Source: a virus
Strand: one strand, 5' to 3'
Length of the DNA stretch: 64,000 nt
Virus record (IMG/VR): IMGVR_UViG_3300022918_000180
Position 1 is the first letter of the stretch; the number at the start of each line of letters is the position of its first letter. The notes below the pieces were generated by a model. It worked only from the letters and a program-made list of their open reading frames with translations. It was not told the DNA's origin and did no database searches. The translations under genes were made by a program, and so were the position numbers. This document shows positions 21,862 through 53,570 of the stretch, in pieces.

Positions 21862-24800
21862 CTAGTAAACCGTCTTTTTGCTGACCTTCTTTTTCTTCGG
21901 CTTCACCGGCTCCTTCGCTTTGATCGCGTCCAGTCCGGCCTGATGCGCCGCGGCCCCGATGTCCTCCAGAATCTCACCGGCTTCGGACAGGGCTGCCTTG
22001 TCGTCAGGGTCGATGTCCGCGAGGCCCTTTTTCATGGGCTTCAGCTTCTTCGTGCCGTCGCGCACCCGGTCGATCTTGAGCGTGCCGTCGATGGCCTGCA
22101 GCATGCCGGCATACCGCGCCTTGCCCGAGACCAGGCTGTAGTCATACCACTCGGCATCGGTCAGGACCCGTTCGACCTTCTTCTCGATCTCCGGACGGGA
22201 GTAGGTGGTGGGCTGCTTCCCGGTCTTCGACATGAACCCGTAGACCTTCTGATCCTCCTCGGTGATCTCGCGGGAATACCCGGGAGGCAGCCCGCTGAAC
22301 TGGCGGTTGGTCAGCTCCGAGCCGGAAGGGTCCGGGCGCAGCGGCTGACCAAACATGTTGATCGCCGGTTTCAGATCGTTCCAGTAATGGGCAAATGGCA
22401 GGTTGCTCCGGAGCCCCAGTTCGAGCTGCTCCGGGTGACTCCACGTCCTGATCCAGCGCTCGCTGCCGCTGTAGGGCAGGAGCGGGGACAAGCTGAACCC
22501 GGCCTGCGAGCCGAGTTTGTTCACCGTCATCCCGCGCTGCAAAGAGTCGCGCATGCCGCCGATGTTGCGCATGCCGGTGGTGATGCTGGCCAGACCCAGT
22601 TGCTTCATGGCCCCCCACAGCGCCATCTCCGGCCGCAGGGCCTCTTCTTTTTTCAGCTTGCTGTCCATGGTGGCATCACTCACGCCGGCCAGCATCATCA
22701 GCGGTGCCTTCAAAGGTTCGAGCGTGCCCCGCTGGAAAGGGATCACTGTGACCTTGCCGTCCTTGTCCGTCTTCTCGATGGCGAACGGAGTGTGGGTGCG
22801 CCGCCAGGCTTTGGCCTCCTCGGGGAACCGGGAGGCGTCGGGGCCGTAGCCGTTGATTTTCCAGTCGTCATCGTCCTGCCACTCCTTCAGAGCGGCCAGA
22901 GCCACCGCCAGAATGGCGTTGCCGACAATGGCTTCCTTCATGCGCTGGCGCACCTGCATGGCGTTGCCGAGACTGCGCTCGTAGGGGTTGTCCTTCTTCC
23001 GGTCGCCCTTGGCCCAGGCGCGGTAGTTCATGAAGCTCAAAAGCGCGAATGGCGAATACCACAGGGAAGCGCGCGCGGCGTTCAGCGGGATGCCGACGAA
23101 GCCCAGCATGCCGCGCCAGAAGATGCGCTGCAGGCTGCCCTCCATGGCGTTCCCATCCTCGATCTCCTTGCGCGCGCGGCGGAACTGGTCCTCGCCGATC
23201 TGCTGGGCTTTGCCTAACGCCCAGTCCGGCACGTTCCAGATGCTGGGCCGGTCACGTTTGTTGCCGACAAAGGCTTGGAAGTCCGCCTCGTCCGTGGCGT
23301 CTTCGAGCAAAGTTGACATGGCCTCGCGGTGCGCTTCCGGAGTGTCCTTGTGCGCGGCCACCAGTTCTTTCCAGCGGGCCCATTGACGGTCCTGCACGTA
23401 GCGCCGTTTGAGCGTGCCGTCGTAGCCCAGGGCGTCGGCCTCCAGCTCGATGGCGTCGGTCGTGAATCCGTCGGCCTTCATCGCGGTGGCGATTTCGGCT
23501 TTGGAAATGCCGCTCTTGCGCATCAGACTGCGGACCTCACGGGTTTCGAAGTAGCGTTGGAAGCCGGCCACGGAAGCGGAGTCCGCGGCGTTCATCGCCT
23601 GCCGGAGATAGTCCTGCGCGGACCGCGCGAACCGCACCACGGCCAACCCCTTTTGCAGAGTGGTGGACGCCGGGTTGGCCAGCACTGCGCGCTGCCTGGC
23701 CATGTCCCGCTTGAGCGCCGAGACCTCACCCAGGCTCACCGCGGAGTCGCCCATGAAGTTGCCGCCGCTGTCGTATTTGAAGGCGTTGGGCAGCTCCGCG
23801 GCGTAGACATCGACCGCGGAGAGGAAGGAGTCCATGACATCGCGGGTCTTCGTGGGGCTGCCGAGACCGAGCATCAGGTCGGTGCCCAGCGTGGCCGCTA
23901 GCCGTCCGACCGGGCCGCTGAACTGGACGGCCATGGTGGTGCCGCTCGACAGCGCGGAGGCGTCGTAGCTGGCAGCCAACAACTCCCAACCACTGGCGGC
24001 TTTGCCGAACTTGCGGTCGATCAGGTCCCGCAGTTTGGCGGAGGCTACGCCTTTCTCGGAAGGGAAATATTGGTCGCCGGAGAGGATCGTCTCCCAGGTG
24101 GCGATCTGCGCGTGTTCGGCGGCGGTCAGCGGCTGGATGCCGGTCACGCTGGAGAACCACGCCTGCCAAGGGGTGCCGTCGGTCATGAGCCCAAAGCGGA
24201 TGGCCTCGCGGATGGACTCCTTGTTGTTCCGGTATTTCTCCGCGAATTCCGCATTGCCCACCGCCTGCGAGCCCACCCCGCGCCGGCGGGTGACGTATTT
24301 CTCCTGCTCCTGATAGATCACGTTCGCCATCACACGCGAGACCATCTCGTCCATGGAGACGGACAACCGCGCGGCGAGGGCGTCGTCGATGCCATTGTTT
24401 TTGAGCCAGTTGGTGATCTGAAGCTGCCGCCATGCCGCGCTGTTACGGTGCTCCGGCGGGGCCTTCATGAAGGTTTTGACGATGCTGCTGACGGGTAGCT
24501 TCCTGACCAACGGACCGATCTCGTCGTCGAGAATGGATTTACCAGCCCGCAGTGAGGCATTCAAGGCACGCTCGGATTTCATCCGGGCTCTTTTTTCCTC
24601 AGCCGAAGCAGCCAGCAAATTGGCAGATTGAGCGGAAAGACCGAACGACCCGAGAATTTCGGCGAGCTTTGCTTCCGAAGTGTCGCCGCGCATCCATTCA
24701 AAGATCGCTTTTTTCAGCCGTTGTTGCTCCGTCGGAGGCACCTTGGCTTTGGGGTCCCTTAGAAGCTCCTCAGCCAACTGTTCGGCGTATTCATCCAGGC

Positions 24801-27423
24801 TTTTGGGTTTGGTTTTTCGCGTGGACGAGCCTTTACCTGTCGGGTCAGCGGTTTCCGCCTGCACCGCCGCGGCGTCCGCGATCCGCTGCAGCGTGGCCAG
24901 CGCACTTGCCACCCCTGGTCCTTCCGGGGAGGTGTTCGCGCTGGCGAAGATGTCCTCGACCTCATTGGCCGTGAGGGTGCGGGTGGCCATGGCCTGACCC
25001 AACGCTTCGATGGAGGCGTCGGTGAACCCCATGGCCTTGAACGCGAGCTGGTGCGATTTAGAGATTATCTGCATGAACTCCGTGAGCCGGGCTCCAACGC
25101 CGGCACTGGATCCGAGCAGCCGTCCGCGGTCACCACGGGTCAGGGCACTGGTTCCGGTATCGAGGATGAGTTGGTCATTGGAGATGCCCATGATGCGGGA
25201 AAACGCACCCGTCTGCCCATGGATCGAAGACAGTGCGGCGGCAGCCTGCACCAGGTTTGTGTATTGCAGATCAGCGGCGGAAATATTACGTTGGCCGGCA
25301 AGCTCCGGCACGGTGTTCAGGTAGGCGCGCAGCTCGTTGGCATATTTTGCGGCGTCTTCTGCGCTACCGGTCAGGCGGCTGAGGTCCGTGTTAATTTTAT
25401 CGTGGAGGGCATTGCGCTGCTGTTCCGTGAGAGTGGAGAGCACGGATTCAATATCAGATCCCGGAACATGGTTCTCGATGATGCCGTCGAACAGAGGAAC
25501 CTCCAAGGCTTTCCGGGTGGCCTTCCTCGCTTCGTAAAGTTTGGTCTCGTTCACCAGCCTTTTGTCGAAGCCGAACCACTTTTCGAAGATCCCCGGCGCG
25601 CCCTCGGGAGATGGCAGGGTGACATCCGGGCTGCTCTCCGCGAAGAGCTTGTTCAGGTAGGGCCGGACATCCTCGCCGAACTCCGTCACCATGTCCCGGC
25701 TCCAGGCTGCGAAGTCGCGCACGCCGCGGGCCACCAGCAGGCTGCCTTTGACGGCGTAGGCCGCGAGCAGCTCAGGGTTGGGCACGCCGCTCAGGAGTTG
25801 CCCGCGGTTCTCGACGATGGTGCGGTTGGCCCACGCCTCTGCGCGCTCCACCACTCCGGGGGCGGGCGTCTCGGATTGAGCAGCGGACTGCTCAATTGGG
25901 GCCTCAGCGGGGCTATTTGGGAGAGATTCTGCGCTTGGTGTTTCGATGGTCAGCGGTTCAGCACCAGCGGGTAATTCGGGAATTAGGGCTCCGGCGCTGT
26001 CAATCACTGGTTGAACGCTACCCACGTTGCCGCTCAAAATGGGCGCTTCCTGAGTGACAACGGAGGGCAATGCAGGCGCGGCTCCTTCCGTCATGGGGAT
26101 CCCCATATCGACCGCCGGAGGGGCAACCGATGGGATTTCCGACATCGGAATTCCGGCATCGACGATTGGTGCCGTCAGTTCTACGGAGTCCTGCGATGTT
26201 CCACGTAGAACTTCCGGTTCCACAGCAGGAGGTTCCACAGGCACGATCACCTCCTCAGCCGGAGCAGTGTCCTGTCGTTTCGCCTCAATCTGTGCCGCGA
26301 TCTGCGCGGTCTTCAGGACCTCGGCTTCAACCTCGGGAGTGGGTGCCACCGCCAAAGCACCGGCGACCACGGCGATCCGCTCGGGCGGGGCCTTGGCTTC
26401 CATGGCCGTCAGCTCCTCCTCGGTGATGGGCGCGGGGGCTGCCACCGGGCGGATGCTCTCAACAGAGGCGCGGCCGGTTGCGGGACGAACCACCGGCGCT
26501 GTCGGAGCGCCGGGCTGCACGGGAGCAGTGAACCCGGCAGGCGGAGGGAGATTGGTGACGGGCGCGCGGGTGGCACCGAGCAATGGCAGGGACATCACGC
26601 CGCCGGCGACACCGCCGAGGGCTCCGGCTTCGAGGTTGCCTTCGAGATACCCCGGGCGGCGCTGCCCGGCGGCTGCGGCTTCCTCCTCGGAGACCGCCGC
26701 GTTGACCAAAGTATTGTTGAGAGTGTTGGCGGCGACTTCCTCCCCGGCCTCCTGCCCCACGGCCATGCCGTAGCCTACCGACGGGCCGCCAATGCCGCCC
26801 ACGCCGAACCGGCGCGCCAAAGCGGATTCCGCACCGAACCCGCCGAGTTTCTCCGTCCCGGCTTCAATGACCCCGCCGGCCAGGGTGAACGCGGCTTTCT
26901 TCCACGGGTCGTCATCGACTTCGAACTGGCGCGCTGTGTCCTCACCGGCGTCCGCGCCTTTGGCGAACATCGAGCCTGCCGCCATCTGACCCACGCGTCC
27001 GATCTGTCCGGCAGCCCCAAGGAGCTTGGCACCGGTCGCGTATTCGAGCACCTGCTCGGCAGCCCCGCCGACGACTTCCCCGGCCTTCACCGCGAACTCG
27101 TCCTGATTGGCGGGGTTCACCGGGAAGGTCTCGGCTCCGAAGGCTTTCACGTCGCGCCCGGCCTGCTGGAAACCGTTGTCGCTCAGACCCGGGATCAGGG
27201 AGCCCAGGTCACCGATGCCTTCGATCAGCGAGCCCACGCCGCCTACCGCGCCACGCCCGGCCGCATTGCCTGCGGAGGCAGCAACGGACTGTCCGGTGTT
27301 GGCATGCTGGTTGCTGATGTTGGACACCTCGGCGTCCAGTTCCGCAGGCGTTAGTTCACGGTCGGACTCAACAACATATTGGGTGCCGTCCGGCAGGTCG
27401 ATAGTCCATTCGTGTTCAGCCAT
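21862..27423 (-). CDS. large internal virion / DNA ejection protein
   Basis: 1853 aa; Ala/Gly-rich N-terminus, Pro/Glu linker, helical body, no Cys; last and largest of three genes after the nozzle gene. Confidence 0.65.
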   Translation of the reverse strand: MAEHEWTIDLPDGTQYVVESDRELTPAELDAEVSNISNQHANTGQSVAASAGNAAGRGAVGGVGSLIEGIGDLGSLIPGLSDNGFQQAGRDVKAFGAETFPVNPANQDEFAVKAGEVVGGAAEQVLEYATGAKLLGAAGQIGRVGQMAAGSMFAKGADAGEDTARQFEVDDDPWKKAAFTLAGGVIEAGTEKLGGFGAESALARRFGVGGIGGPSVGYGMAVGQEAGEEVAANTLNNTLVNAAVSEEEAAAAGQRRPGYLEGNLEAGALGGVAGGVMSLPLLGATRAPVTNLPPPAGFTAPVQPGAPTAPVVRPATGRASVESIRPVAAPAPITEEELTAMEAKAPPERIAVVAGALAVAPTPEVEAEVLKTAQIAAQIEAKRQDTAPAEEVIVPVEPPAVEPEVLRGTSQDSVELTAPIVDAGIPMSEIPSVAPPAVDMGIPMTEGAAPALPSVVTQEAPILSGNVGSVQPVIDSAGALIPELPAGAEPLTIETPSAESLPNSPAEAPIEQSAAQSETPAPGVVERAEAWANRTIVENRGQLLSGVPNPELLAAYAVKGSLLVARGVRDFAAWSRDMVTEFGEDVRPYLNKLFAESSPDVTLPSPEGAPGIFEKWFGFDKRLVNETKLYEARKATRKALEVPLFDGIIENHVPGSDIESVLSTLTEQQRNALHDKINTDLSRLTGSAEDAAKYANELRAYLNTVPELAGQRNISAADLQYTNLVQAAAALSSIHGQTGAFSRIMGISNDQLILDTGTSALTRGDRGRLLGSSAGVGARLTEFMQIISKSHQLAFKAMGFTDASIEALGQAMATRTLTANEVEDIFASANTSPEGPGVASALATLQRIADAAAVQAETADPTGKGSSTRKTKPKSLDEYAEQLAEELLRDPKAKVPPTEQQRLKKAIFEWMRGDTSEAKLAEILGSFGLSAQSANLLAASAEEKRARMKSERALNASLRAGKSILDDEIGPLVRKLPVSSIVKTFMKAPPEHRNSAAWRQLQITNWLKNNGIDDALAARLSVSMDEMVSRVMANVIYQEQEKYVTRRRGVGSQAVGNAEFAEKYRNNKESIREAIRFGLMTDGTPWQAWFSSVTGIQPLTAAEHAQIATWETILSGDQYFPSEKGVASAKLRDLIDRKFGKAASGWELLAASYDASALSSGTTMAVQFSGPVGRLAATLGTDLMLGLGSPTKTRDVMDSFLSAVDVYAAELPNAFKYDSGGNFMGDSAVSLGEVSALKRDMARQRAVLANPASTTLQKGLAVVRFARSAQDYLRQAMNAADSASVAGFQRYFETREVRSLMRKSGISKAEIATAMKADGFTTDAIELEADALGYDGTLKRRYVQDRQWARWKELVAAHKDTPEAHREAMSTLLEDATDEADFQAFVGNKRDRPSIWNVPDWALGKAQQIGEDQFRRARKEIEDGNAMEGSLQRIFWRGMLGFVGIPLNAARASLWYSPFALLSFMNYRAWAKGDRKKDNPYERSLGNAMQVRQRMKEAIVGNAILAVALAALKEWQDDDDWKINGYGPDASRFPEEAKAWRRTHTPFAIEKTDKDGKVTVIPFQRGTLEPLKAPLMMLAGVSDATMDSKLKKEEALRPEMALWGAMKQLGLASITTGMRNIGGMRDSLQRGMTVNKLGSQAGFSLSPLLPYSGSERWIRTWSHPEQLELGLRSNLPFAHYWNDLKPAINMFGQPLRPDPSGSELTNRQFSGLPPGYSREITEEDQKVYGFMSKTGKQPTTYSRPEIEKKVERVLTDAEWYDYSLVSGKARYAGMLQAIDGTLKIDRVRDGTKKLKPMKKGLADIDPDDKAALSEAGEILEDIGAAAHQAGLDAIKAKEPVKPKKKKVSKKTVY

Positions 27424-28918
27424 TTGGAGCAGCAGGTGATTTGGTCTTCCGGATAGTTACACCCTGCGTCTTCGGCTGCACAACTTTTCTGCGGTTCAAT
27501 TCCTGCTGGGCCGCGGCTTGAACGAACTCGGAAATGGCCACTTCACCGGTGCGGCCGGTGGCTTCCTTGCGGTCAGCACCGGGGGGCATCTGGAAGTTGG
27601 CTTTGATCCGCTCGGCGATACCTTCCGCGGGGTCGTAGGCCGGGCCGGTGATGTATTCCACGAGGGAGTTGCGGGTGCCGCCCTGGGCGAGCGCCTCCAA
27701 CTCCTCGTTGGTGGCTTCCTTGAGATTTGCCGCGCGGTAGGCTTCCGCTTTCCCGGCGTTCCAGAATTTGTTGGCCTCCTCGTCGGTGGCGGACTTCGGC
27801 AGCAGGCCGATACCCACGGGTGCCGGCTCGGCCTGGGCGGCGGGAACATCCGCTTCCAGATTCCCGGTCGCGCGGTTCAGGCTCAGGGTCTGCCCCGCCC
27901 GGCTGTTGGGGTCCTGCTCGATCCGGGGCGCGTCAGTGAGCACCTCCGCGCGCGGAGTCGGAGCATTCAGCTTTTGGATAGCACGGTTCACGGTCTCAAG
28001 CTCGATCTCTGCGGCCGGATCCGGTTCGCCATCTTCCAAAGCTGCCTCGGCTTTCGCTTTCCGTGAGAGCAGGCCGTTCATGATGGAGTTCTCCGACTTC
28101 ATCCGGTCGTCCTCCATCTTCTGACGGCGGGCGATGGAGAGCGGGTCCATGGGGAGTTGACCCTGCGCACCCACGGGCGGGGCCGCGGTGAACGCTGGAG
28201 CAGGCGTTGCATAGCTCGGAGGAGCACCGGCGACCGGAGTGTTGTCCACGGGGACCACTGGCGGGGCCAGCAGGTCCGCGCCGCCACCCGCGTCCGCCGG
28301 GTCATATGTGCCGGCCGGGATTGGCTCCATGATCAGCGGGTCCGCTCCAGGCCCCGAGGTGGTGGACGGCAGGTCGTAGCCCGGGTCGGTGTAGCCGGGA
28401 CCGGCGGAAGGGGTGTATCCAGACGCGCCCGACGGCTCGTAGCCCGCAGGCTGAATGACCGTCACGGCGTGGGGAGGCGGCATGCCCATGGCCACGGCGT
28501 CGGCATTGGCTTTGTTCTGCACGGCGGTGAGCGGGATGACCTTGGGGCGGCTCGCTGCGGTGGGCCGCCAGAACTTCTCCGGATTGGTGCGGCGCTCTTC
28601 CGCCAACATGCGGGCCTCCTCCTGCGCGGCAATCGACGCGGCGTCACGGTTGATGTTCGACATGGTGGCGGCGTAGTTCAACCCGCCGGGCTGGTCCTGC
28701 GCCTGCTGGTAGGCAAACTTCATTTCCGTGAGACCATATTGCGCCATCTGCTGCTCGTGCTGCCGTTGGCGGTTCTGCTCCTCCAGGCGTTGGTTCTCCT
28801 TGGCCCGGCGGTCGGCGATCATCATCTGTTCGCGGGCGAGCCGCTGTTGCAGGCCGAGCGTGACCGCGCCGAGCACGTTGGGCTGCTGACGTTCGTAAAA
28901 GTTGATGGGGATGGCCAT
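27416..28918 (-). CDS. internal virion / ejection protein
   Basis: 500 aa, Gln/Pro/Ala-rich, no Cys; podovirus-type synteny. Confidence 0.55.
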   Translation of the reverse strand: MAIPINFYERQQPNVLGAVTLGLQQRLAREQMMIADRRAKENQRLEEQNRQRQHEQQMAQYGLTEMKFAYQQAQDQPGGLNYAATMSNINRDAASIAAQEEARMLAEERRTNPEKFWRPTAASRPKVIPLTAVQNKANADAVAMGMPPPHAVTVIQPAGYEPSGASGYTPSAGPGYTDPGYDLPSTTSGPGADPLIMEPIPAGTYDPADAGGGADLLAPPVVPVDNTPVAGAPPSYATPAPAFTAAPPVGAQGQLPMDPLSIARRQKMEDDRMKSENSIMNGLLSRKAKAEAALEDGEPDPAAEIELETVNRAIQKLNAPTPRAEVLTDAPRIEQDPNSRAGQTLSLNRATGNLEADVPAAQAEPAPVGIGLLPKSATDEEANKFWNAGKAEAYRAANLKEATNEELEALAQGGTRNSLVEYITGPAYDPAEGIAERIKANFQMPPGADRKEATGRTGEVAISEFVQAAAQQELNRRKVVQPKTQGVTIRKTKSPAAPNG

Positions 28919-28921
28919 GAT

Positions 28922-30091
28922 TTAACCGCCGTAGCTGGCGCTGAGGTTCCGGACCGAAGTGGTGTCCTTGTAAGGGGAGTTGACGTTGGCATACTGCCCG
29001 CCGGTGTTCAGGCCGGTGCTGCCACCGCTGCCGCCCATGCCGCCGAACATGCTGCCCATGCCACCCATCAGGGCTCCCCAGTCCATGCCACCCATCCCGC
29101 CGCTGCCACCTGAACCGCCACCTGCTTTGGCCAGTTGCAACGCGAGGTCCTTCTCGAACATGCCCTTGGCCATCGGGTCCGGAGAGGCCCACAGGTTGTT
29201 GGCGTTCTGGTCGGAGGCGTATTGGTTCTCGGCCTGCTGGATGGCCAGCGAGGAAAGTTTGAGGTTCTCGTCGATCTTCCAAGGCACCGTCTCCCGCGGG
29301 GTGAGTTGGTATTCCTGCGGAGTGCCATAGTTGCCGCGCGGGTCGAGTTGCTCGGCCTGCTGGATGGCAGCACCGTTCAGCGCCACGCCCCGCTGGCGCA
29401 GGTCCATGTCGAGCAGGCCCAGGTCACGCGCGGTCAGCGCCGCCCCGGTGCCGGGAGTGCCCACGCTGCCGTTGATGCCGGTGCTGCGGGCCACGGTCTC
29501 CATGGAGTCACTCCACGATGCCTGTCCGTTCAGGTATTGATTGGCGAGATTGCTGGTGGTGCCGACGTTGCCCCACAGCGCGGGGCTGAACCCGTCCGCG
29601 CGGTTGCGGCTGGTGTCCTGATTGATGTCGGCGTTCTCCCGCAGGAGCCGCCAAATCTGCTGATTGGACGCGATGTTATCGTTGATCGTCTGCTGTTGGA
29701 TGGCACCGTAATCCTGCTTCTCCAAGGGCACCTCCTGATATTGCGCGGCCTCGGGGACGTAGCCGAACGCCGAGCGGTAGGCCCCGCCTGCGCCGCCCCC
29801 GGCACCACCGCCGGAGTTGGCAAATGGGTTGCCGGTGCCGCCGCCCTGGGCCACGGTGTCACCGCGCTCGACGTGGGCTTCGTAAATGGGACCTTCCGCG
29901 TAACCGTCGATGGCCCCACCGATGGCCCCGCCCCAGCCGCCCCACATGCCGCCGTATTTGCTGCCCTCGTTGTAGCCGGTCTGCGCGCCGTTGAGCGCAC
30001 GCTCCCAACTGGACATGTTGGCAATGCGGTCCCGCTCCGCCTTCTGACGGGCGGCGAGATCCTGTTCGTAGGTGGGAACGCGGGAGGCCAT
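28922..30091 (-). CDS. DNA pilot / ejection protein
   Basis: 389 aa, Gly/Gln/Asn-rich with amphipathic GG repeats, no Cys. Confidence 0.55.
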   Translation of the reverse strand: MASRVPTYEQDLAARQKAERDRIANMSSWERALNGAQTGYNEGSKYGGMWGGWGGAIGGAIDGYAEGPIYEAHVERGDTVAQGGGTGNPFANSGGGAGGGAGGAYRSAFGYVPEAAQYQEVPLEKQDYGAIQQQTINDNIASNQQIWRLLRENADINQDTSRNRADGFSPALWGNVGTTSNLANQYLNGQASWSDSMETVARSTGINGSVGTPGTGAALTARDLGLLDMDLRQRGVALNGAAIQQAEQLDPRGNYGTPQEYQLTPRETVPWKIDENLKLSSLAIQQAENQYASDQNANNLWASPDPMAKGMFEKDLALQLAKAGGGSGGSGGMGGMDWGALMGGMGSMFGGMGGSGGSTGLNTGGQYANVNSPYKDTTSVRNLSASYGG

Positions 30092-30094
30092 AAG

Positions 30095-31093
30095 TTACAT
30101 GCCGACGAAATTGCTCGGCTGATTGAAGGTGTCTTGGAAATTCATTTTGCGGCGGTGGCCGGTATCCTCCACCGCGGCTTCCGCGCCGATGAAGGCATCG
30201 AACATATTCTGCTTGAACATGGCGTTGGCAATCTCCGCCTGATCCATTTTTGAGGCGGCGGTGGTGCGGATGAACTGCGCGCCGGCGACCCAGGCCACGC
30301 GGTTGTCGTGCTCCACGATGTCGAGTTGGTCGTAAAGACGGGTGAAGCGGCGGAGGCCCTTGACGGCGATGGTCTTCCCCTGACCACAGACGCAGTCTCC
30401 GTTGATCCGGATGCGGCGGTAGGTGGGGACATCCTCGCCGGCGTCCCACTGGGCCACGTCCACGCCGTTGGCGCGCACCTTGACCGGACCTTTCAGGTCG
30501 AGCGGCAGGCGCACACCGGAGGGGGCCATGCTCTTTACCTTGGTGGGGAACGCGGTCCACTTGCCCTGCACCAGCGGGATGGAGTGGGTGACGAACTGAC
30601 CGATGTCGTCGATGTAGGAGGCGGTGACCAACTGGCCGGATCCGCACTTGGTGCCCATCACTTCGAGGATGAAAGGCTCGGTGCAGCCGGGATCACGCTC
30701 GAAGACATAGGTGTCACCCATGTCCTCGAACTTCCATTCAAAATTCTGCGATGCCTGCGGTTCGTAGGAAGCCCATCGGGTGACGTAGGGTAGAGTCACG
30801 CCCTGCCGGAAGATCATCACCGCCTGCTTCATCCACTTGGGCAAAGTGACCCCCGCCCACGGCTGACCGGAGGCGCTGCAGCCGCAGTAGCCGGGGTCGC
30901 ACGCCGGGCAGAAGCACTGGACGGGGACACAGATGTAGGAGGGCTTGGCATGCTCCAGCACCTGCCGGTTGTTGTAAGCCATCTGCCGGATGTCGTTCAT
31001 CAGCTCGATGAGCTTGTCCCGGTCGCATACCGCATCCTTCCCGATGGCTTCGGCAAGCCATCCGACAACGCGGCCAACAGTGGTTTGGTTCAT
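30095..31093 (-). CDS. virion structural protein, probable head-tail adaptor
   Basis: N- and C-terminal helices flanking a beta region; 11 Cys including CVPVQCFCPACDPGYCGC. Confidence 0.45.
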   Translation of the reverse strand: MNQTTVGRVVGWLAEAIGKDAVCDRDKLIELMNDIRQMAYNNRQVLEHAKPSYICVPVQCFCPACDPGYCGCSASGQPWAGVTLPKWMKQAVMIFRQGVTLPYVTRWASYEPQASQNFEWKFEDMGDTYVFERDPGCTEPFILEVMGTKCGSGQLVTASYIDDIGQFVTHSIPLVQGKWTAFPTKVKSMAPSGVRLPLDLKGPVKVRANGVDVAQWDAGEDVPTYRRIRINGDCVCGQGKTIAVKGLRRFTRLYDQLDIVEHDNRVAWVAGAQFIRTTAASKMDQAEIANAMFKQNMFDAFIGAEAAVEDTGHRRKMNFQDTFNQPSNFVGM

Positions 31094-31611
31094 TAGACTT
31101 GGGCGGTGACGATGACGGGGACTTCATTGTCCGAGGCGTAGGCCACGGTGACGGAGTTAGCACTGCGCTGGACAATCCACCAGCGCGTATTCGTGCCGGG
31201 GTCGCCAATAAAAGCAGCGTTCACGGTGTAGGGGCCGGTGAACAGAGCGGGATCGAGGTCCAGTGTGACTTCGGAAACGGTGCCGTTGGAGGTGCGCTGC
31301 ACACTGACGGTGGTGCGGTCGGGCACGTAAATGCCTCCGTCGCTGCCCAGCACCGCGAGGTTGCCGGCGTCATTGGAGACCTGCGAAAGGTTGATAGCGC
31401 CGCTGGCCTGCAGGTTTTTCAGCGTCTCGAAGAACGCCTCCTGGAGGGAGTTGATAACGTCTTTGGGGAAGACGATGATCATGGACTCGATGATCGTCCG
31501 CAGCAGGGCGTCGGTCTCCGGGTCGCGGTCAAGGTCCGGACGCGGCAGGACATCCAGTGTGGTGCCGTAGGTGTTGACACTGGAGGGGCTCAGGATGTGC
31601 GGGTTTTCCAT
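31093..31611 (-). CDS. virion structural protein
   Basis: VSNDAGNLAVLGSDGGIYVP motif seen in phage tail proteins. Confidence 0.5.
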   Translation of the reverse strand: MENPHILSPSSVNTYGTTLDVLPRPDLDRDPETDALLRTIIESMIIVFPKDVINSLQEAFFETLKNLQASGAINLSQVSNDAGNLAVLGSDGGIYVPDRTTVSVQRTSNGTVSEVTLDLDPALFTGPYTVNAAFIGDPGTNTRWWIVQRSANSVTVAYASDNEVPVIVTAQV

Positions 31612-33461
31612 TATGGTGTGCAGGATTCGATGATTTTGTCAGCCCAGTCCGAGCCATTGTTATACTCGTAGTCGTCGTCCACATACAAGTCCGGACATGG
31701 GTATTGTCCTTTGGTGTTGGTGTTTTCCCCCAAGGTGCCAGCAGGCTTCGGACCGAACCGGAGCATGACCGATGCCGCGCCCTGCCACCGGATCATGAAT
31801 TCGATCCGCTGCTCCTTCTCAGGCTGCGGAGGAAAAGCGCCCACCGATCGCAGACCATTCTTGAGCCCGCCCCGCTGCCACGTCTCGTGCCGGCGGCCCA
31901 GCGTCTTCCACTTTCCGCGCGGCTCGCGGTGCAGCACTTCCCACGTCAACGGGCCAACGGCGTCCTCCACCAGCAGGTGGACGAAGTCGCCATCCGTGCC
32001 TTGAAACATGGAGGATCCGAACTGCGGCGTGACCACGCGGGATTGGATAGGCTTTTTGTTGCCGCCTTCCAGAATGTCGTGCTCCAGATCCGGGCGGTAG
32101 CGCCAGACGGTGTGGCGCTGCTTCGAATGGTTCCAGCAGATGGCGAAAATTTCCTCCCGCTCCGAAAAGATGCCGCCGACGAACTGGACGGGACCACCGG
32201 CCTCGGGCGGCAGGCAGCGCAGGCCCTCCCATGCACCGAGACTGGAGCCGTCGGTGGGCACGCCCTGCTCCGGATCCTGACAGGCGGTGATGAAGCCGCG
32301 GTGCCAGCGGTGGAGACCGCGGCTGAAGTTATAGACTGTGCAGAAGATCCGCTGCTTGGTCTCGTGACGGATCATGGAGTTGAAGCGCAGCAGCTCCGCG
32401 AAGTCGCCGGCCATGGCGTAGCGCATCGGCCCGGCGAGATCATGGTAGGGGCTGCCGGGGGTGTTGCGTTCGGCCCGGGCGCTGCGCAGGGACTGGATGC
32501 CTTTGCGGGAACGGAAGGCGATGTCTCCATCCCAGTGGCATTGGCCGAACGGCCCGGAGGCCGCGGTATTCAAAATCGCGTGTTTGGAGATCACCTTGGT
32601 CCCCCAGTCGGTGCGGGGCCAGACGTTGGTGTCCGCCGACCAGGTGCCGCCGGGGTTGGGGCAGAAGGCGATCATCTCGCCGTGGCCATGCTGGGTGTCC
32701 TGCAACGGAAGGATGTCCAGCGAGAGGATCGGCCCCATGTTGGAGGGTGGCGAGAGGAACTGACCGGTGGCCAGATAGACCTGCTCGGTGGTGGCGAGGA
32801 TGTTCTCCGCGCTGCTGTAATTGGTGCGGTGGACCGGGTCACCCACGATCACGGCGTTCATGCCATTCATGCGCACCCCGATGTGGAGTTTGGCATGGAG
32901 GTAGCGCACGGGCCCCGCGTAATTGGGGAGCTGGGAGTTGTCCTTGTCGATGACGTTATACCCGCTGCTCCACCGGGTGGTGTTGTCGCGGCCGTCGATG
33001 ATCATCGTCAGGCCGACGCTGTCCGTGCGGATGAAATAGTATTCCGCTCCCTCGCCCCAGGCGAGCTGCACGTTCTCGGAAGAACGCAGGCCGTTGCTGG
33101 CGTCCTGCAGCGTGAAAGTGAACCGTCCGTTGGTGCGGTTGGGTTTGAGCCGGAACATGCGGCCCTTGACGGAGTGGAGGATCTGCGCGGCCTCTTCGGC
33201 AAAACGGATGGCCGATTGCCCGAGGGCCGGGTTAAAGTAAAATGCACCTTGGGTGTTGCCGGTCCGCCAGTCGTTGAGCAGCCCCTCTTCGCCCTCCACC
33301 GGGACATGCTCCCAACCGTGGGCGGTGCGGGCCATCCGCAGATGCAACCGGATGTTGGTGGCCCGTTGAATCTGATCGTTCCCGAGGATGAACGGATGCA
33401 CCTCGCTGCGCACTCCACCGGTCGGGAAGCCTAGCGGAAGGACATTTGCAGGCAGAGCCAT
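31611..33461 (-). CDS. tail nozzle / tubular protein B-like
   Basis: 616 aa beta-rich; N-terminal FPTGGV..N pattern of nozzle proteins; start MALPANV at 33461. Confidence 0.55.
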   Translation of the reverse strand: MALPANVLPLGFPTGGVRSEVHPFILGNDQIQRATNIRLHLRMARTAHGWEHVPVEGEEGLLNDWRTGNTQGAFYFNPALGQSAIRFAEEAAQILHSVKGRMFRLKPNRTNGRFTFTLQDASNGLRSSENVQLAWGEGAEYYFIRTDSVGLTMIIDGRDNTTRWSSGYNVIDKDNSQLPNYAGPVRYLHAKLHIGVRMNGMNAVIVGDPVHRTNYSSAENILATTEQVYLATGQFLSPPSNMGPILSLDILPLQDTQHGHGEMIAFCPNPGGTWSADTNVWPRTDWGTKVISKHAILNTAASGPFGQCHWDGDIAFRSRKGIQSLRSARAERNTPGSPYHDLAGPMRYAMAGDFAELLRFNSMIRHETKQRIFCTVYNFSRGLHRWHRGFITACQDPEQGVPTDGSSLGAWEGLRCLPPEAGGPVQFVGGIFSEREEIFAICWNHSKQRHTVWRYRPDLEHDILEGGNKKPIQSRVVTPQFGSSMFQGTDGDFVHLLVEDAVGPLTWEVLHREPRGKWKTLGRRHETWQRGGLKNGLRSVGAFPPQPEKEQRIEFMIRWQGAASVMLRFGPKPAGTLGENTNTKGQYPCPDLYVDDDYEYNNGSDWADKIIESCTP

Positions 33462-33466
33462 CGGGG

Positions 33467-34663
33467 TTACGGGAGGAGGGCGAGGACGTAGACGACCGCC
33501 AGATGCGAGCCGACATTGCCGGCGAAGGCGATTTGATAGAAGTTGTTGATGTGCAGGATGCCGTCGTCGGGGATCGGGATCTCCACGGTATTCTGGTTGT
33601 CGTTGGACGCGCTGTCCGCCGCGCATGCATTGCGGGCATACTCCTTACCATTGATGGCAATCCCGGCATCGAAATGCTGGGAGATCGTGGTGGACTTGCA
33701 GTGGATGTGCAGGCGGACCGTCTTGTGGCTCGGCAGGTAACCGGGCAGCAGGGTGAGATCGACGGGGAAATCCGGGTTGGCTACAACCGGCAGCGCGCCG
33801 GGAGTGTTCACCGATGGGAAATAGCTGATGCCGGTGATCGGTCCGACGGATTTGTGCTGGAGGTAGACTTCTTCCCACGGCTCGAAGATCACCGGGTCTC
33901 CGATCCCAAGCAGGCGTTTGACCTGCGTCCAGTTGGCCCCGATCAGCTTTTTAACTTTGTTGCTGCCGTTGGTGCAGCCTTCCTCCCGCCAGAACGCGAG
34001 GCTCAGTTTGATGTCCTCCGGGTCCTCGGCGTCGATGAGGTCAGCGTCCACCACCGGGTCCACGACGGCCTGCTGCCATTGGTCGAGGGAATACCAGGTG
34101 TAGTTGTCGATAACCTCACCGCCGGTCAGCGTAACACTGTCCTTGATGTAGCCGAGCATCTTGGGGGACACGCAGTTCCCACCCGTGTTTTGCTTGCCAG
34201 CTCCGAGAAGTTGAGGGTTGATCGATACCGGCTTACCGGAACTTGGGCAGCTCTCCCGCTGCCAGCCGTGGATGAACCCGGTATTCGAAGCCGCGGGAAG
34301 CATCTTGACCAGTTTCAAAGGATCGACAGCGCAACCAGTAGTGGTTTCGAAGTATGCAGGCCAGTGGGATTTGGTGGCATCGGCAGCAGGTATGTTGGAA
34401 AATTCGGGAGCATCAAGGGGCCCCACGTAATCAGGGCCGCCGCAGTTGTCAGGATTATGCTGCCAGCTTCCTTTTATGGTTTGAGGTTGGCTTAGACAAC
34501 CTGTGACAGTGTCCAACGCTGTCAGTGTGGTCCCCTGCGAGGCATCGCTGGGTGCCAGTCCGATCAGCCTGGCGTCACAGAACCTTGCGGCGTTAGGATC
34601 GCCGACGAAGTCGAAGTTCTCCGGAATCGGGGGTGAGGAGCAGGGTGAGTTTGGGCACGCCAT
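33467..34663 (-). CDS. Cys-rich virion structural protein
   Basis: Start MACPNSPC; 11 Cys in 398 aa; C-terminal beta-sandwich-like region. Confidence 0.5.
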   Translation of the reverse strand: MACPNSPCSSPPIPENFDFVGDPNAARFCDARLIGLAPSDASQGTTLTALDTVTGCLSQPQTIKGSWQHNPDNCGGPDYVGPLDAPEFSNIPAADATKSHWPAYFETTTGCAVDPLKLVKMLPAASNTGFIHGWQRESCPSSGKPVSINPQLLGAGKQNTGGNCVSPKMLGYIKDSVTLTGGEVIDNYTWYSLDQWQQAVVDPVVDADLIDAEDPEDIKLSLAFWREEGCTNGSNKVKKLIGANWTQVKRLLGIGDPVIFEPWEEVYLQHKSVGPITGISYFPSVNTPGALPVVANPDFPVDLTLLPGYLPSHKTVRLHIHCKSTTISQHFDAGIAINGKEYARNACAADSASNDNQNTVEIPIPDDGILHINNFYQIAFAGNVGSHLAVVYVLALLP

Positions 34664-34719
34664 GATGGGCCGGATTTTAGCCGGGCCGTTCTGAAACACA
34701 AGTGCGAAGACACGCCCCA

Positions 34720-34747
34720 TTGACTTTGATCGTATTTACCGCAAAAT
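34720..34747 (+). promoter_or_regulatory. putative promoter for the portal operon
   Basis: TTGACT-16-CAAAAT, 9 nt before the portal ATG, in a divergent intergenic gap. Confidence 0.45.
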
Positions 34748-34756
34748 GGGCCACAG

Positions 34757-38324: not shown

Positions 38325-39593
38325 ATGAGCACCGAAACTCTCGAACCGCCTGCCGCCGAACCGGCGGAAAATCTTTTTGCCCAGTTGGATAGCCTGCTGG
38401 CCGGCGACTACTCCGACGATCCCCCACTGGAGACCGAGCTGGCGGTTGACCCTCCACCTGCAAAAGAGGACGCCCCTCCGGTTGAAGCTGACAAGAAGCC
38501 CGATGACGAGGCCCCGCCGGCCGAGCCCTCACCCAAACCCGGTTCCTTCAAAGCCCTGAAGCTGGAGAAGGAGCGTGAGATGGCCGAGACCAAGGCCAAG
38601 TATGAAGCTGATCTGGCGGAGGCCAACGAGCGTGCTGCGAGGTTTGAGACCGAGGCCAAAACCCACGCGGAGAAGGTCGGCTCGGCGGAGGCACTGCGGC
38701 TGGCCCATGAGAAGGAGCTGACCGAATTGCAGCAGAAGATCGTCGCTGAATACGAGACGCCCTACTCCCTGGAGTATGATCCCGATGCTCAGAAACCACT
38801 GGCGGATCTGCGCGAGTCCGAGAAGATGCTCGACCACGCCGTGCGTCAGGCCGCCACCAGTCTCGGCTCCAACCAGCAGGCGGCCAACGCCATCTTCCAG
38901 AACAAGAAACTCTTCGCCGGTGTCCTCGGGTCCATGGCCCAGGGGCTGACTCCGGACGTGGAACACGCCGACTATCTGGTCACGGAACTCGGGAAGATGG
39001 GAGTGGCGGTCTCCGCCGAGGATGCGAGGGACGCGGTGCGCGGACTGAAAACCGCCGTGCCCCAACTGGGCCGCTATCAGGACATCACCCAGTATCTGAA
39101 GAACCTGCAGGCCAAAAACGAGCCAGAGTGGACCAACCAGCAGGCCGCCCGTCACGAAGCCTACCGCCGCGAGGTGTTGAAGCACGCGGACGTGGCGGAC
39201 GATGCCGCGGAGGGCGATGACGCCACCATGGCGGCCATTCTCAAAGCCAACCCGGAACGCCGGACGAAGTTGCAGGCCGAGGCCGACCGCCTGAGTGCTC
39301 AGATCATCGGCCCCGCGCCCGGCAAGGCTACCGCCGCCGCCGTCCGCGCCGCGCCGCAGGTGCTCCATCAGAACGCCGTCAAAGCCGCGCGGCTGCCAGT
39401 GGCTCTGGAAGCCTACCGCGAGACCTCCGCGGAGAACGCCACTCTCAAAGCACGGGTCGCGGAACTGGAGGCGCGCATCGGCAAGGAGTCCGGCGGCATC
39501 CCCAAACCCGCGGGCACCGTGACGCCGGTGAAGGCCACGCTCTCCGGCAAAAATCTCGATGACGAGCTGAAACGCGCGTTGGAAATGAAATGA
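38325..39593 (+). CDS. capsid scaffolding protein (probable)
   Basis: Acidic Pro-rich N-terminus, long coiled coils, basic C-terminus; between portal and TerL. Confidence 0.55.
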   Translation: MSTETLEPPAAEPAENLFAQLDSLLAGDYSDDPPLETELAVDPPPAKEDAPPVEADKKPDDEAPPAEPSPKPGSFKALKLEKEREMAETKAKYEADLAEANERAARFETEAKTHAEKVGSAEALRLAHEKELTELQQKIVAEYETPYSLEYDPDAQKPLADLRESEKMLDHAVRQAATSLGSNQQAANAIFQNKKLFAGVLGSMAQGLTPDVEHADYLVTELGKMGVAVSAEDARDAVRGLKTAVPQLGRYQDITQYLKNLQAKNEPEWTNQQAARHEAYRREVLKHADVADDAAEGDDATMAAILKANPERRTKLQAEADRLSAQIIGPAPGKATAAAVRAAPQVLHQNAVKAARLPVALEAYRETSAENATLKARVAELEARIGKESGGIPKPAGTVTPVKATLSGKNLDDELKRALEMK

Positions 39594-41677: not shown

Positions 41678-42306
41678 ACAAGTGCCTCATCGCCCGCTCC
41701 GACACCTACGGGATTCCCGGCGGGTGGAGGCTCACCCATCCGGCTCTCGGCGGACAGACCATTCTCGAACGCTCGCCTGAGCACGCGGTGGCGGCACTGG
41801 AGGCCATGCTGCGGGTCAACAACTTCGCCACCACCCGTGACGACTTGTGGGCCTATGCGAACGGCGTGTGGGGCCGCGCGGTGATCGCGTCCGGGGAAGC
41901 CGACCGCTGGATGGGCGGCCCGTTGCCGGACGATACGCTCGCAGCCGCGGAGGCGCCGGCGTTCATGCGCCGGCTGCTCAACCCGAAGGACTACGGCGGG
42001 GTCCTGTGGGGCACGCTGCACCTGCTCCCGCTGGTCTGGACCAAAGATGCGTGGATGGCGCACATCGCGCTGATGACCAGGATCATCGAGCCCGGCGGTT
42101 ACGAGCAGGGCTGCCCAATCTGCGCGGCTCACTGGAAGAGCTTCCTGTCCACCACTCCTCCGGAGTTCATCTCGTCAGCGTCGGCGGCGGCGGACTGGTC
42201 CCTGCGGGCGCACAATTCCGCGAGCAGTCATGCCGGTCACCCGCAGTGGACGTGGCGCGAGGCCGCTGAGAAGTGGGGCTGGCCGGGCGAGTGGGAGGCG
42301 GAATAA
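41674..42306 (+). CDS. ERV1/ALR-family FAD-dependent sulfhydryl oxidase
   Basis: NPKDYGGVLWGTLH, CPICAAHW (CxxC-x2-H), DWSLRAHN..S..G..W: the complete Erv motif set; ATGA-coupled to terL. Confidence 0.78.
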   Translation: MNKCLIARSDTYGIPGGWRLTHPALGGQTILERSPEHAVAALEAMLRVNNFATTRDDLWAYANGVWGRAVIASGEADRWMGGPLPDDTLAAAEAPAFMRRLLNPKDYGGVLWGTLHLLPLVWTKDAWMAHIALMTRIIEPGGYEQGCPICAAHWKSFLSTTPPEFISSASAAADWSLRAHNSASSHAGHPQWTWREAAEKWGWPGEWEAE

Positions 42307-42308
42307 AA

Positions 42309-51702: not shown

Positions 51703-51719
51703 GGCTTGTGGATAAAGTT

Positions 51720-51753
51720 TGGCCGGGGACAGACGGTTTGTCCATCCCCGGCC
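51720..51753 (-). terminator. hairpin downstream of the capsid gene
   Basis: GGCCGGGGA...TCCCCGGCC stem just after the capsid stop codon. Confidence 0.45.
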
Positions 51754-51767
51754 GGGTTTAATTTCGA

Positions 51768-53570
51768 TTACACGTCTTCGGGCAGGGCGGGGAAGGCCAC
51801 CACCGTGGTCGTGCAGGACGTGTTGGGGAGCAGCACGGCAGCCTGGGGAGCAGGGAGCACGTTGCTGTAGTTGATGTTGAACTGGGTGCCGGGGGTGGCA
51901 GTCGAGAGCAACGTGACGTTGAAGCACTTGGTGCCGCACTCCTTGTCAGCCCAGGACAACGTGCCGCTGGTCGTGGTGTATTCGTTCCCGGCACCGGCGG
52001 TAGCCGTTCCGGGAGCGGTGGCGTAGTCGAGGGAGACGATACCATTGGCGGCGTAACCGGCAGGGACGGTGCGGGTGACGCAGACCTTGAGGAGCAGCGT
52101 TCCGGCTTCCACTTCCACGCGGCACTCGGTGGTGAAGACACCGTAGGAGAGCGGCAGGGCGGTGGCGGTCGCGCAGGCTTTCTCCTCGGCACAGGTCAGT
52201 CCATCCACGGGGCAGCCCGGGGAAATGCCGACAGGAGCCAGGGCGCGATTGGTCACGGGGTCAAGGCCGATGCGGTTGGCCACCATCTCGTAGCCGGGGA
52301 GGCGGCTCCAGAGGATGGCGGTGGCGCGGGGCTGCTCGGGGTCCATCTTCCACGCCTGCTTCAGGCGGGGTTTGAACTTGTCCTCGTTCTCATTGCACTG
52401 GAGGAACGCACCCCCGATGAACTTGACGGAGCTGGCGATGGACCACGCTTCGGCACCGTTGGTGACCGGGGTGGAGGCGTCCAGACCGATGGGGCGCATG
52501 GAGTAGGCATCCTTGGCGGCAGCCCAGATCGGGGAGACCAGATCGTGGGAGACACCGGAGTTGTCCGTGAAGCGGGATCCCTGGTAACGGGAGTCACTGA
52601 AGGCGCGCACCCCGCGGTTCACCGCCTTCCACAGGCGGCGGTCGATGGGGACGAACTGACGGGTGCTGGGACCGGTCTGCTTGATGTAGCCGAACGGAAG
52701 GTCCGCGATTTTGACGGTGATGCCGTCCACGGAGATGGTCTTGCCCACGCTGTATTCCGGGATCTGCGGTCCCATGAAGTTCATGGCCTGAACCTGGAAG
52801 CCGGCCGAGCCATTGAACTGGCGGGAGAGGAACCAACTGCGGGCGACACGCTCGTGCATGTGCCAGACCTTTTCCCCGGCGAAGTCGTTGCCGCGCAGGT
52901 GCTCCTCGAACATGAGGGCATTGTTGCTGGTGAAGACGCTGTCCGGAGTGTGGGGGATGCTGCCCAGGGTGTAGGCCGGATAATCCTCGCTGATGATCGA
53001 GCTGTTCCAGCCGTTCTTCTGCATGGTCACGAAGATGTTCCAGTCGCGGATGCGCATGGCGGCGCGGCTCAGACCCCGGGTCATGGCTTTGATGTATTGG
53101 GCGAAGAGGCCGCGGTTTTTGCCGCGGTATTCCCAGATGCAGTGCTCCTTGTCCTCGACCTGGATGTATTGGGCCTTGCCGCGGAACTCCTCGGAGCCGC
53201 TGGCCAGCACAGTGAGCCCGCGGGGGGAACAGGCGGTGTGGCTGTCGTCGGCGATGATCGCGGCCACCTGCTCGGTGGACATGCAGTCATTGGGGGAGAA
53301 GTTTTTCGTGGAATCCGTGTGGGTTTCCTTGAATTCGGGGGCCTCCACATAGGTGTTCATGAGGTCCATCGAGTAGATCCGGTTCAGCTCGTCATCCTGG
53401 TAGGATGCCGGGCCCATCTGGAAATGGTTCACGAGGGAGAGTTCGTGCTGGAGGGCCTCGCGGTTGTCCTCCCATCCGCGTTCGCGGATGATGCGTTCGG
53501 CGAGAGTAAGTCCGGCGTCCGCCCAGGAGGCAGGTTGTCCGTTTACGAGTAGATTGCAGCCACAGGCCAT
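51768..53570 (-). CDS. major capsid protein (probable) with C-terminal Calx-beta domain
   Basis: First late gene after its own promoter and long leader, followed by a hairpin; C-terminal VTR..GIVSLDYATAPGTATAG.EY..TSGTLSW matches Calx-beta; 14 Cys. Confidence 0.6.
   Translation of the reverse strand: MACGCNLLVNGQPASWADAGLTLAERIIRERGWEDNREALQHELSLVNHFQMGPASYQDDELNRIYSMDLMNTYVEAPEFKETHTDSTKNFSPNDCMSTEQVAAIIADDSHTACSPRGLTVLASGSEEFRGKAQYIQVEDKEHCIWEYRGKNRGLFAQYIKAMTRGLSRAAMRIRDWNIFVTMQKNGWNSSIISEDYPAYTLGSIPHTPDSVFTSNNALMFEEHLRGNDFAGEKVWHMHERVARSWFLSRQFNGSAGFQVQAMNFMGPQIPEYSVGKTISVDGITVKIADLPFGYIKQTGPSTRQFVPIDRRLWKAVNRGVRAFSDSRYQGSRFTDNSGVSHDLVSPIWAAAKDAYSMRPIGLDASTPVTNGAEAWSIASSVKFIGGAFLQCNENEDKFKPRLKQAWKMDPEQPRATAILWSRLPGYEMVANRIGLDPVTNRALAPVGISPGCPVDGLTCAEEKACATATALPLSYGVFTTECRVEVEAGTLLLKVCVTRTVPAGYAANGIVSLDYATAPGTATAGAGNEYTTTSGTLSWADKECGTKCFNVTLLSTATPGTQFNINYSNVLPAPQAAVLLPNTSCTTTVVAFPALPEDV

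Follow-up and report, generated by a model that had tools for sequence, protein, structure and literature searches.

Whether the uneven distribution of cysteine among the virion proteins of a phage reflects the action of an oxidase encoded by that same phage is the question raised by IMG/VR record IMGVR_UViG_3300022918_000180. The window, i.e., the whole stretch of 64,000 nucleotides that was analyzed (a contig of ~65 kb with ~60% G+C), corresponds to a temperate phage that encodes, beside its packaging and head genes, a protein with an Erv1/Alr sulfhydryl-oxidase domain (hereafter Erv). An earlier note on this DNA had described a Cys-rich outer shell opposed to Cys-free ejected and scaffold proteins, and had taken the dichotomy for the pattern expected of oxidase substrates. 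The present analysis indicates that two independent phenomena, a Cys-free half and a Cys-rich half, are superimposed in this dichotomy, and we favor, with moderate confidence, the reading in which they are separate and Erv catalyzes disulfide formation in the capsid protein, the head-to-tail adaptor and a 398-amino-acid (aa) tail-module protein. The genes concerned are:

51768..53570, minus strand: major capsid protein with an HK97 fold and a C-terminal Calx-beta domain; 14 Cys/600 aa, N-terminus MACGC
30095..31093, minus strand: head-to-tail adaptor carrying a beta-sandwich insertion; 11 Cys/332 aa, containing CVPVQCFCPACDPGYCGC
33467..34663, minus strand: 398-aa tail-module protein, fast-evolving; 11 Cys, N-terminus MACPNSPC
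41674..42306, plus strand: two-domain protein with the Erv1/Alr sulfhydryl-oxidase domain, its start overlapping the stop of the large terminase gene (terL)

The comparisons were made with relatives at two depths. Close syntenic loci were available from metagenomes (L001-L003) and from a Sphingomonadaceae metagenome-assembled genome (MAG G001; L004), three contigs of which yielded further parts of its phage. Distant relatives, reached through capsid and terminase alignments, were the IMG/VR genomes G402 (58.5 kb, 96% complete), G403 and G406, whose proteins are 19-32% identical to those of the window and whose genes follow the canonical order terL-Erv-portal-scaffold-capsid ... nozzle-adaptor-ejection genes. 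No relative of terL, Erv, the nozzle or the portal was found among 50,697 isolated phages and, G001 apart, no related phage was present in 400 sampled Sphingomonadaceae or 400 sampled Alphaproteobacteria genomes. The lineage is uncultured and probably infects Sphingomonadaceae.

Most late and structural open reading frames (ORFs) of the window had no PHROGs or Pfam match, and PDB sequence and profile searches were empty for the capsid body, terL and the portal. The capsid model (me09cfa2c214f) was built with AlphaFold2 (AF2) on an alignment of 11 full-length homologs gathered by an exhaustive HMMER search. When it was compared with the PDB by Foldseek, the capsid proteins of N4, Moo19, A4, Pan3, DEV and Sf6 were retrieved (E 5e-9 to 1e-5, probability 1.00) at modest TM-scores of 0.26-0.29 by query, and the last ~130 residues were recognized as a Calx-beta domain both by the C-terminal Foldseek matches and by Pfam (Calx-beta, 23.1 bits). 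By its predicted fold, the product of 51768-53570, previously proposed as a capsid candidate, is an HK97-fold capsid protein. For the adaptor, Foldseek against the PDB found nothing with the AF2 model (m01fa7dcbc2f0; 11 homologs; predicted local distance difference test, pLDDT, 68.6). The top 10 of a VIA-align search over 48,161 chains came exclusively from short-tailed phages, including A4, SU10, Moo19, Pa223, GP4, KHP30 and DEV, and there from portal-tail or tail complexes, in which the adaptor proteins are contained (Z 10.1-7.0, 164-189 residues aligned); Sf6 gp7, HK97 gp6 and P22 gp4 came next. This modeled structure identifies the product of 30095-31093 as a podovirus head-to-tail adaptor (P22 gp4/T7 gp11/SU10 type), in agreement with the adaptor-like assignment made before.

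All Cys counts of the earlier note were reproduced, as were the Cys-rich N-termini of the products of 51768-53570 (MACGC) and 33467-34663 (MACPNSPC); the first ATG of the latter gene, at 34720, would give 417 aa with the same 11 Cys. Two backgrounds were used, namely 10 early or replication proteins of the window (1.47% Cys) and a sample of 25.7 thousand aa from the Sphingomonadaceae MAG carrying a related phage (0.90%). Pooled, the four proteins formerly named as rich (those of the capsid, the adaptor, the tail module and the nozzle) reach 2.26% Cys (P = 0.004 with the phage as background, 6e-8 with the MAG). Taken singly, the adaptor (3.3%, P = 0.011) and the 398-aa protein (2.8%, P = 0.036) are enriched and the capsid protein is borderline (2.3%, P = 0.064), whereas the nozzle (1.3%) and the portal (1.0%) show no enrichment.

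The positions of these cysteines proved more informative than their numbers. The capsid proteins of G402, G403 and G406 carry 10-14 Cys, and seven Cys of the window protein are shared with G402 and G403 at ~19% identity (P = 0.009). Conserved capsid positions include C5, C114, C144, C392 and C460. Among 14 capsid homologs, C114 and C144 are jointly missing in P0082 only, and C483 and C586, one at the first strand of the Calx-beta domain and the other at the last, are jointly missing in the same four sequences; a Cys within the first ~11 residues is present in all 14. In the adaptor, 11/11 Cys are kept at 66% identity within the close clade; C55, C65, C137 and C150 never vary in 11 homologs, down to 23% identity, and C72 is almost invariant, and the adaptors of the three distant genomes hold 8-10 Cys. 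The fast-evolving 398-aa protein keeps 8/11 Cys at just 35-37% identity (P = 0.01-0.02). C3, C29 and C56 recur in its positional counterparts of G402 and G403. These two proteins (354 and 361 aa) have 13 Cys each and escaped detection as homologs by BLAST; the tail-module proteins of G402, G403 and G406 have 10-13 Cys (3.6-4.4%). Across the deep split, the binomial P for Cys retention in capsid and adaptor was 0.009-0.049. Cys retention in the capsid, adaptor and 398-aa proteins is far above background identity.

This retention bears on the view that the whole contrast is a compositional effect devoid of function, in which a Cys-tolerant proteome (1.47% against 0.9% in the MAG) would be combined with a universal avoidance of Cys by internal proteins. 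The remaining head and tail genes are relevant here:

31611..33461, minus strand: nozzle/tail-hub-like protein; 8 Cys/616 aa, average for the window
34757..37150, plus strand: portal protein; 8 Cys/797 aa, average
39590..41677, plus strand: large terminase (terL); 14 Cys/695 aa, a non-virion protein

Early proteins of the phage are already richer in Cys than the MAG sample, the nozzle and the portal are unenriched, and in portal, nozzle and terminase the Cys positions are unconserved between clades at similar numbers, all of which suits a compositional origin. Just 4-5 of the 8 portal Cys persist at 60% identity, and G402 and G403 share none of them; in the nozzle, whose homologs in these two genomes are 31-32% identical, only C267, C374 and (C442) are deeply kept, not above chance; in terL, 12-13 of the 14 are kept within the clade and only one is shared with G402 and G403, which have 10-12 Cys at other positions. 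In the capsid, adaptor and 398-aa proteins, on the other hand, positional conservation and pair co-variation stand well above the identity-based expectation; the compositional explanation is disfavored by these sequence comparisons, and we hold it to be very unlikely.

The assignments of these three genes differ in firmness. The terL product displays the Walker A (GNQNQGKS), Walker B (LVHYLDE) and nuclease (FLDPAKTAGGD) motifs, with key residues invariant down to 25% identity. The G406 terminase frame (L052:8681-11629, plus strand) encodes 982 aa and matches the terminase of G403 in two pieces, which suggests an N-terminal fusion or insertion. In structure searches of the ESM Atlas, the portal fell with clusters bearing SU10_portal, P22_portal and Head-tail_con (TM 0.48-0.64), a lead to its identity as a portal, and the nozzle fell with phage clusters, one of them with PF11134 Phage_stabilise on 17% of its members, a lead only to a P22-gp10-like hub. 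The longest nozzle ORF, from 33626, would have 671 aa and 9 Cys and overlap the upstream gene. Among the roles guessed before, those of capsid and adaptor were confirmed by the models, and that of the nozzle was backed only as an Atlas lead.

The conserved cysteines could also serve as metal ligands (Zn, or Fe-S in the adaptor cluster) or as functional free thiols. In the adaptor of the window clade, a segment of 18 residues contains seven Cys, and their C-x2-C and C-x-C spacings are of the kind usual in metal knuckles; the deep core of the adaptor consists of three Cys (C55, C65 and C72), the capsid protein starts with C-G-C, and assembly takes place in the reducing cytoplasm. However, the ligands of a Zn site should co-vary in sets of three or four, and the capsid Cys are lost in pairs (114/144 and 483/586), which is the behavior of disulfide partners; moreover, one of these pairs is located within the Calx-beta sandwich, a domain of extracellular type, and a dedicated thiol oxidase is encoded beside the packaging and head genes. 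Metal binding or free thiols thus appear a rather improbable account of the Cys-rich half. From the co-variation we infer at least two intramolecular capsid disulfides, C114-C144 and C483-C586, and the universal N-terminal capsid Cys is a candidate inter-subunit link.

The Erv protein is composed of a phage-specific N-terminal domain and the Erv1/Alr domain. Its homologs in G402, G403 and G406 match PF04777 with 48.3, 40.7 and 34.7 bits, respectively, and the motifs W..LH, G-C-x-x-C and AHN/VHN are kept in 14 close homologs and in these three distant ones, so that the window protein is predicted to be an Erv/ALR-fold oxidase with a redox C-x-x-C. Thirteen homologs were found at 53-65% identity, and the nearest IMG/VR sequences beyond the phage lineage belong to giant viruses (26-31% identity). 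Accordingly, 15 IMG/VR loci with distant Erv (L005-L019), considered as phage controls, were discarded as giant-virus contigs bearing the capsid protein of nucleocytoplasmic large DNA viruses (NCLDV), PolB and topoisomerase II. Full-text literature searches returned no report of a phage-encoded Erv. To our knowledge, the viruses known to encode Erv oxidases all infect eukaryotes.

The Erv gene follows terL in the window, in L001-L004 and in G402, G403 and G406. It does so in every relative with a visible capsid gene, and the capsid and adaptor proteins, where visible, are Cys-rich. The link between Erv and Cys-rich virion proteins is, on these gene comparisons, consistent throughout the lineage. 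Three shorter IMG/VR contigs of 14-17 kb, which end at or just past the portal gene and leave the capsid and adaptor genes outside, depart from this arrangement: G404 (UViG 3300022562_001869) and G405 (3300045684_000044) have the N-terminal domain of Erv only, and G407 (3300044610_000331) has neither domain.

The N-terminal ~100 residues of Erv, with the motifs PGGW and N..W, are a separate module in the slot between terL and portal. The stand-alone versions (L050:11513-11941, plus strand, in G404; L051:13557-14012, plus strand, in G405) match it with E values of 4e-14 and 1e-15 and compare with window positions 41674-41980. Its Cys4 is invariant in the window clade and absent in G403, G405 and G406. 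This domain may dock onto the head-assembly machinery. In the same slot, the ORFs L054:12046-12609 (plus strand, G407) and L051:13724-14290 (plus strand, G405) have C-terminal parts that resemble small hydrophobic proteins with C-x-x-C (CRLC, CRTC). Neither has a Pfam Erv match, and the second, which overlaps the N-domain ORF in another frame, may not be real.

A proven case of disulfide-stitched particles helps to weigh what Erv contributes. In Agrobacterium phage Milano, a dithiothreitol (DTT)-sensitive disulfide network, proven by cryo-electron microscopy, joins capsid, neck, collar and sheath, and disulfides connect an adaptor-like neck protein with the capsid protein (PMC10491603). Cys makes up 1.4% of the Milano proteome and 2.4% of its structural proteins, and the paper is silent on how the bonds form (PMC10491603). 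The window resembles Milano in that both are tailed phages of an alphaproteobacterium (a probable host in the case of the window), in their Cys levels (1.47% and 2.26% in the window) and in that capsid and neck or adaptor carry the Cys; it differs in that Milano has a contractile tail and unrelated proteins, and in that the bonds in the window are predicted ones. The Milano-type level (~2-3% in structural proteins) is reached in the window only by the capsid, adaptor and 398-aa proteins, and these three are probably disulfide-bonded as in Milano, as judged from their sequences.

The Milano group also supplies an argument for a spontaneous origin of the shell disulfides, which would form in oxygenated water after lysis or be driven by assembly, as has to be the case for Qbeta and the phages of the Milano type, while Erv would serve another purpose, such as the folding of one particular protein (the 398-aa one of the tail, for example) or an action on host proteins; the dichotomy would then be uninformative on Erv. 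The catalytic domain is moreover dispensable in part of the lineage, given that G404 and G405 keep the N-domain only. Against this stands the location of Erv within the terL-Erv-portal-scaffold-capsid string, kept across lineages that are 19-30% identical. Such a position in the head-assembly string, together with its deep retention, argues for a role in morphogenesis, and every relative that shows both has Erv and a Cys-rich capsid protein. On balance, spontaneous oxidation with an Erv devoted to other tasks is considered unlikely.

Several results weigh against Erv-catalyzed disulfides in the three Cys-rich proteins. One concerns phage 7-7-1, a close relative of Milano, as is OLIVR4 (Commun Biol 2023, PMC10491603), in which structural Cys are conserved. 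Cys accounts for 2.13% of its capsid protein, 3.2% of its sheath and 3-5% of its baseplate proteins, and its whole genome (69 kb) gave no PF04777 match at E <= 1. A phage without an Erv match that reaches the same Cys levels, in a group where the network is proven, indicates that the oxidase is not needed for such virions and that the pattern is not diagnostic of it. Equal Cys richness in relatives lacking Erv was one of the outcomes that the earlier note took as refuting its inference, and an unrelated analog without an Erv match shows such richness. Within the window, the non-virion terL (39590-41677, 14 Cys/695 aa) is as rich as the capsid protein, and the fiber- or spike-like late proteins are Cys-poor (43065-44060, 1/331; 46176-47735, 4/519), which weakens the contrast between shell and cargo. 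In the relatives, terL is equally Cys-rich with and without the Erv domain: terL (1.45-1.9%) and portal (0.5-0.6%) of G404, G405 and G407 have the same Cys content as in Erv-bearing relatives. The Erv domain of the window itself scores 27.4 bits against PF04777, 0.2 below the Pfam cut-off of 27.6; no thioredoxin, glutaredoxin or Dsb family was matched by Pfam in the 10 small or Cys-rich window ORFs scanned; the capsid model has a low confidence (pLDDT 58.6); and the C-x9-C-x6-C core of the adaptor could bind metal.

The earlier claims survive these points in part. The Cys-rich outer shell holds for the capsid, adaptor and 398-aa proteins and fails for the nozzle and portal, which are average, for the poor fiber-like proteins, and in view of a rich cytoplasmic terminase; the stronger form, in which all outer proteins would be Cys-rich, is ruled out by the levels of nozzle, portal and fiber-like proteins. 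Likewise, the interpretation as a pattern of oxidase substrates is supported by the Cys conserved in the three proteins, by the co-varying capsid pairs and by the linkage of Erv, and it is undercut by the likeness of 7-7-1 and by the generic nature of the Cys-free half, for which the window provides the following genes, listed together with a further Cys-free one of 172 aa:

21862..27423, minus strand: 1853-aa protein; 0 Cys, the last gene of the adaptor/nozzle operon, no Pfam domain
27416..28918, minus strand: 500-aa protein; 0 Cys
28922..30091, minus strand: 389-aa protein; 0 Cys, glycine-rich (17% Gly)
31093..31611, minus strand: 172-aa protein between nozzle and adaptor; 0 Cys
38325..39593, plus strand: 422-aa protein; 0 Cys, acidic, Ala/Glu/Lys-rich, no family match

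On recount, the three ejection-type proteins (1853, 500 and 389 aa) and the 422-aa scaffold were each Cys-free as claimed, and 0 Cys in their 3,164 aa has P = 4e-21 against the phage background. The 1853-aa product is probably an internal or ejected virion protein, going by position, size and composition only. The 500-aa product is probably an ejection protein by its position, and the 389-aa product probably another by position, size and composition. The same three features make the 422-aa product a probable scaffold. Their homologs share the lack of Cys: the G001 orthologs of the 1853-aa (53% identity) and 500-aa (39%) proteins have none, nor do the homologs of the 389-aa protein in G001 (53%) and in G402 and G403 (362 and 369 aa, 27-29%) or the four orthologs of the 422-aa protein (47-52%). 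The G001 ortholog of the 172-aa protein (32% identity) has one. In the distant relatives, the interval between portal and capsid encodes 425 aa with 0 Cys (G402), 422 aa with 0 Cys (G403) and 448 aa with 1 Cys (G406), and the first two ejection-type proteins of all three have 0 Cys. Where the window has the 1853-aa protein, giant late proteins are found in G402 (L035:3952-16284, 4110 aa, 1 Cys, no Pfam domain) and in G403 (25249-37212, 3987 aa, 4 Cys).

The same absence is found in well-studied short-tailed phages. No Cys occurs in T7 gp15 (747 aa), gp16 (1318 aa) and scaffold gp9, in P22 gp7, gp20, gp16 and scaffold gp8, or in the N4 virion RNA polymerase (3500 aa; gp50), gp51, gp52 and gp57, and there is none in gp115 of phage 7-7-1 (778 aa), a tape-measure-like protein, so that the rich-versus-free contrast is also seen in the Milano group. 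In T7, P22 and N4, Cys levels are 0-1.5% for the shell proteins and 0-0.6% for the capsid proteins. We know of no Erv encoded by T7, P22 or N4. Since the ejected and scaffold proteins of these three phages are Cys-free, the Cys-free half is no oxidase signature, and the caveat already raised in the earlier note, that ejection proteins are often Cys-poor anyway, was justified. A lack of Cys in the proteins that exit the capsid is common to short-tailed phages in general and independent of any oxidase.

The likeness to T7 gp14-16 and gp9, to P22 gp7, gp20, gp16 and gp8 and to N4 gp50-52, known here from genes alone, lies in three successive large genes past the adaptor and nozzle, the last of them giant, all Cys-free, and in a Cys-free scaffold. 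The last-in-operon place of the 1853-aa gene is like that of T7 gp16 and N4 gp50, and the giant-gene slot also matches the position of the 3500-aa N4 virion RNA polymerase. No sequence or domain similarity was detectable between the ejection-type proteins of the window and those of T7, P22 or N4. As for the underlying reason, a scaffold must exit the procapsid and the three large proteins would be threaded via the tail into the oxidizing periplasm, and both would avoid Cys. A full-text search of a review on ejection proteins (PMC8954989) found the word 'cysteine' 0 times, and the rule may be under-described.

Viral disulfide pathways that operate in a reducing compartment are known from large eukaryotic DNA viruses, such as the vaccinia E10R-A2.5L-G4L relay, pB119L of African swine fever virus (ASFV) and the baculovirus P33/Ac92. 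Mimivirus R596 is another Erv-family member of such pathways in large DNA viruses (PMC3509050). The phage system resembles these in having a virus-encoded, predicted Erv-family FAD oxidase with C-x-x-C among morphogenesis genes, with virion proteins as presumed substrates in a reducing compartment; it differs in its bacterial host and in the fusion of the Erv domain to a phage-specific N-domain that also occurs alone. Poxviruses moreover use the thioredoxin-fold relay A2.5L/G4L, for which Pfam gave no counterpart in the 10 window ORFs scanned; a relay protein is not a feature of all viral Erv systems. The capsids of single-stranded RNA phages such as Qbeta and PP7, in which Cys pairs cross-link the subunits and thereby stabilize the extracellular particle, have another fold, belong to another virus realm and involve no viral oxidase.

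Other genes of the window complete the picture of this phage. It encodes an integrase, a primase (DUF5906), a nuclease (DUF2800) and an Enc34-type single-stranded DNA-binding protein, as well as a family A polymerase, an SNF2 helicase and an Apyc1-like metallo-beta-lactamase, and no tRNA genes were found in the window. The latter enzyme, of 418 aa (104-1360, minus strand), has a strong Anti-Pycsar Apyc1/metallo-beta-lactamase match (PF23023, 90.8 bits) and is probably a counter-defense nuclease for cyclic nucleotides. Two small early ORFs, at 13513-13959 (plus strand, 8 Cys/148 aa) and 18680-19162 (plus strand, 11 Cys/160 aa), have no Pfam match and may encode zinc-binding DNA-binding proteins. 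The late region contains, in the interval from portal to scaffold, the gene of a right-handed beta-helix protein (37147-37866, plus strand); it further encodes an SGNH/GDSL esterase-domain protein that is probably a tail spike (46176-47735, minus strand), a GT25-containing glycosyltransferase (48460-49965, minus strand) and a calcineurin-like phosphoesterase (49969-51258, minus strand).

In the mechanism that we propose, three permanent parts of the virion, namely the capsid with its Calx-beta domain, the adaptor and the 398-aa tail-module protein, would carry disulfides, and Erv would be their probable catalyst, using O2 to form the bonds while heads assemble in the reducing cytoplasm; the outcome would be a Milano-like, covalently stiffened particle. 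We infer the oxidation of these cysteines, the responsibility of Erv and the timing from the conservation and co-variation of the Cys and from the linkage of the gene. A more specific version, which we put forward tentatively, is that a deep uncultured lineage of short-tailed phages possesses its own cytoplasmic disulfide system, in which the N-domain would deliver Erv to the assembling head and Erv would oxidize Cys pairs of the capsid (including the displayed Calx-beta domain), the adaptor and the tail protein.

The two halves of the dichotomy have different implications. Cys-free scaffold and ejected proteins hold in T7, P22, N4, a Milano-type phage and the present lineage, look like a general, little-discussed rule, and should not count as evidence of an oxidase. 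Disulfide-stitched particles of tailed phages are known from Milano. If Erv oxidizes the capsid and adaptor proteins, it would supply the missing mechanism by which such bonds arise in, or after, the reducing cytoplasm, and extend viral oxidative folding to bacteria. No pathway of oxidative protein folding encoded by a virus of prokaryotes would precede it, and it would be an enzymatic counterpart to the unexplained network of the Milano type. It would also provide a compact oxidase with defined substrates for disulfide-bonded assemblies in the bacterial cytoplasm.

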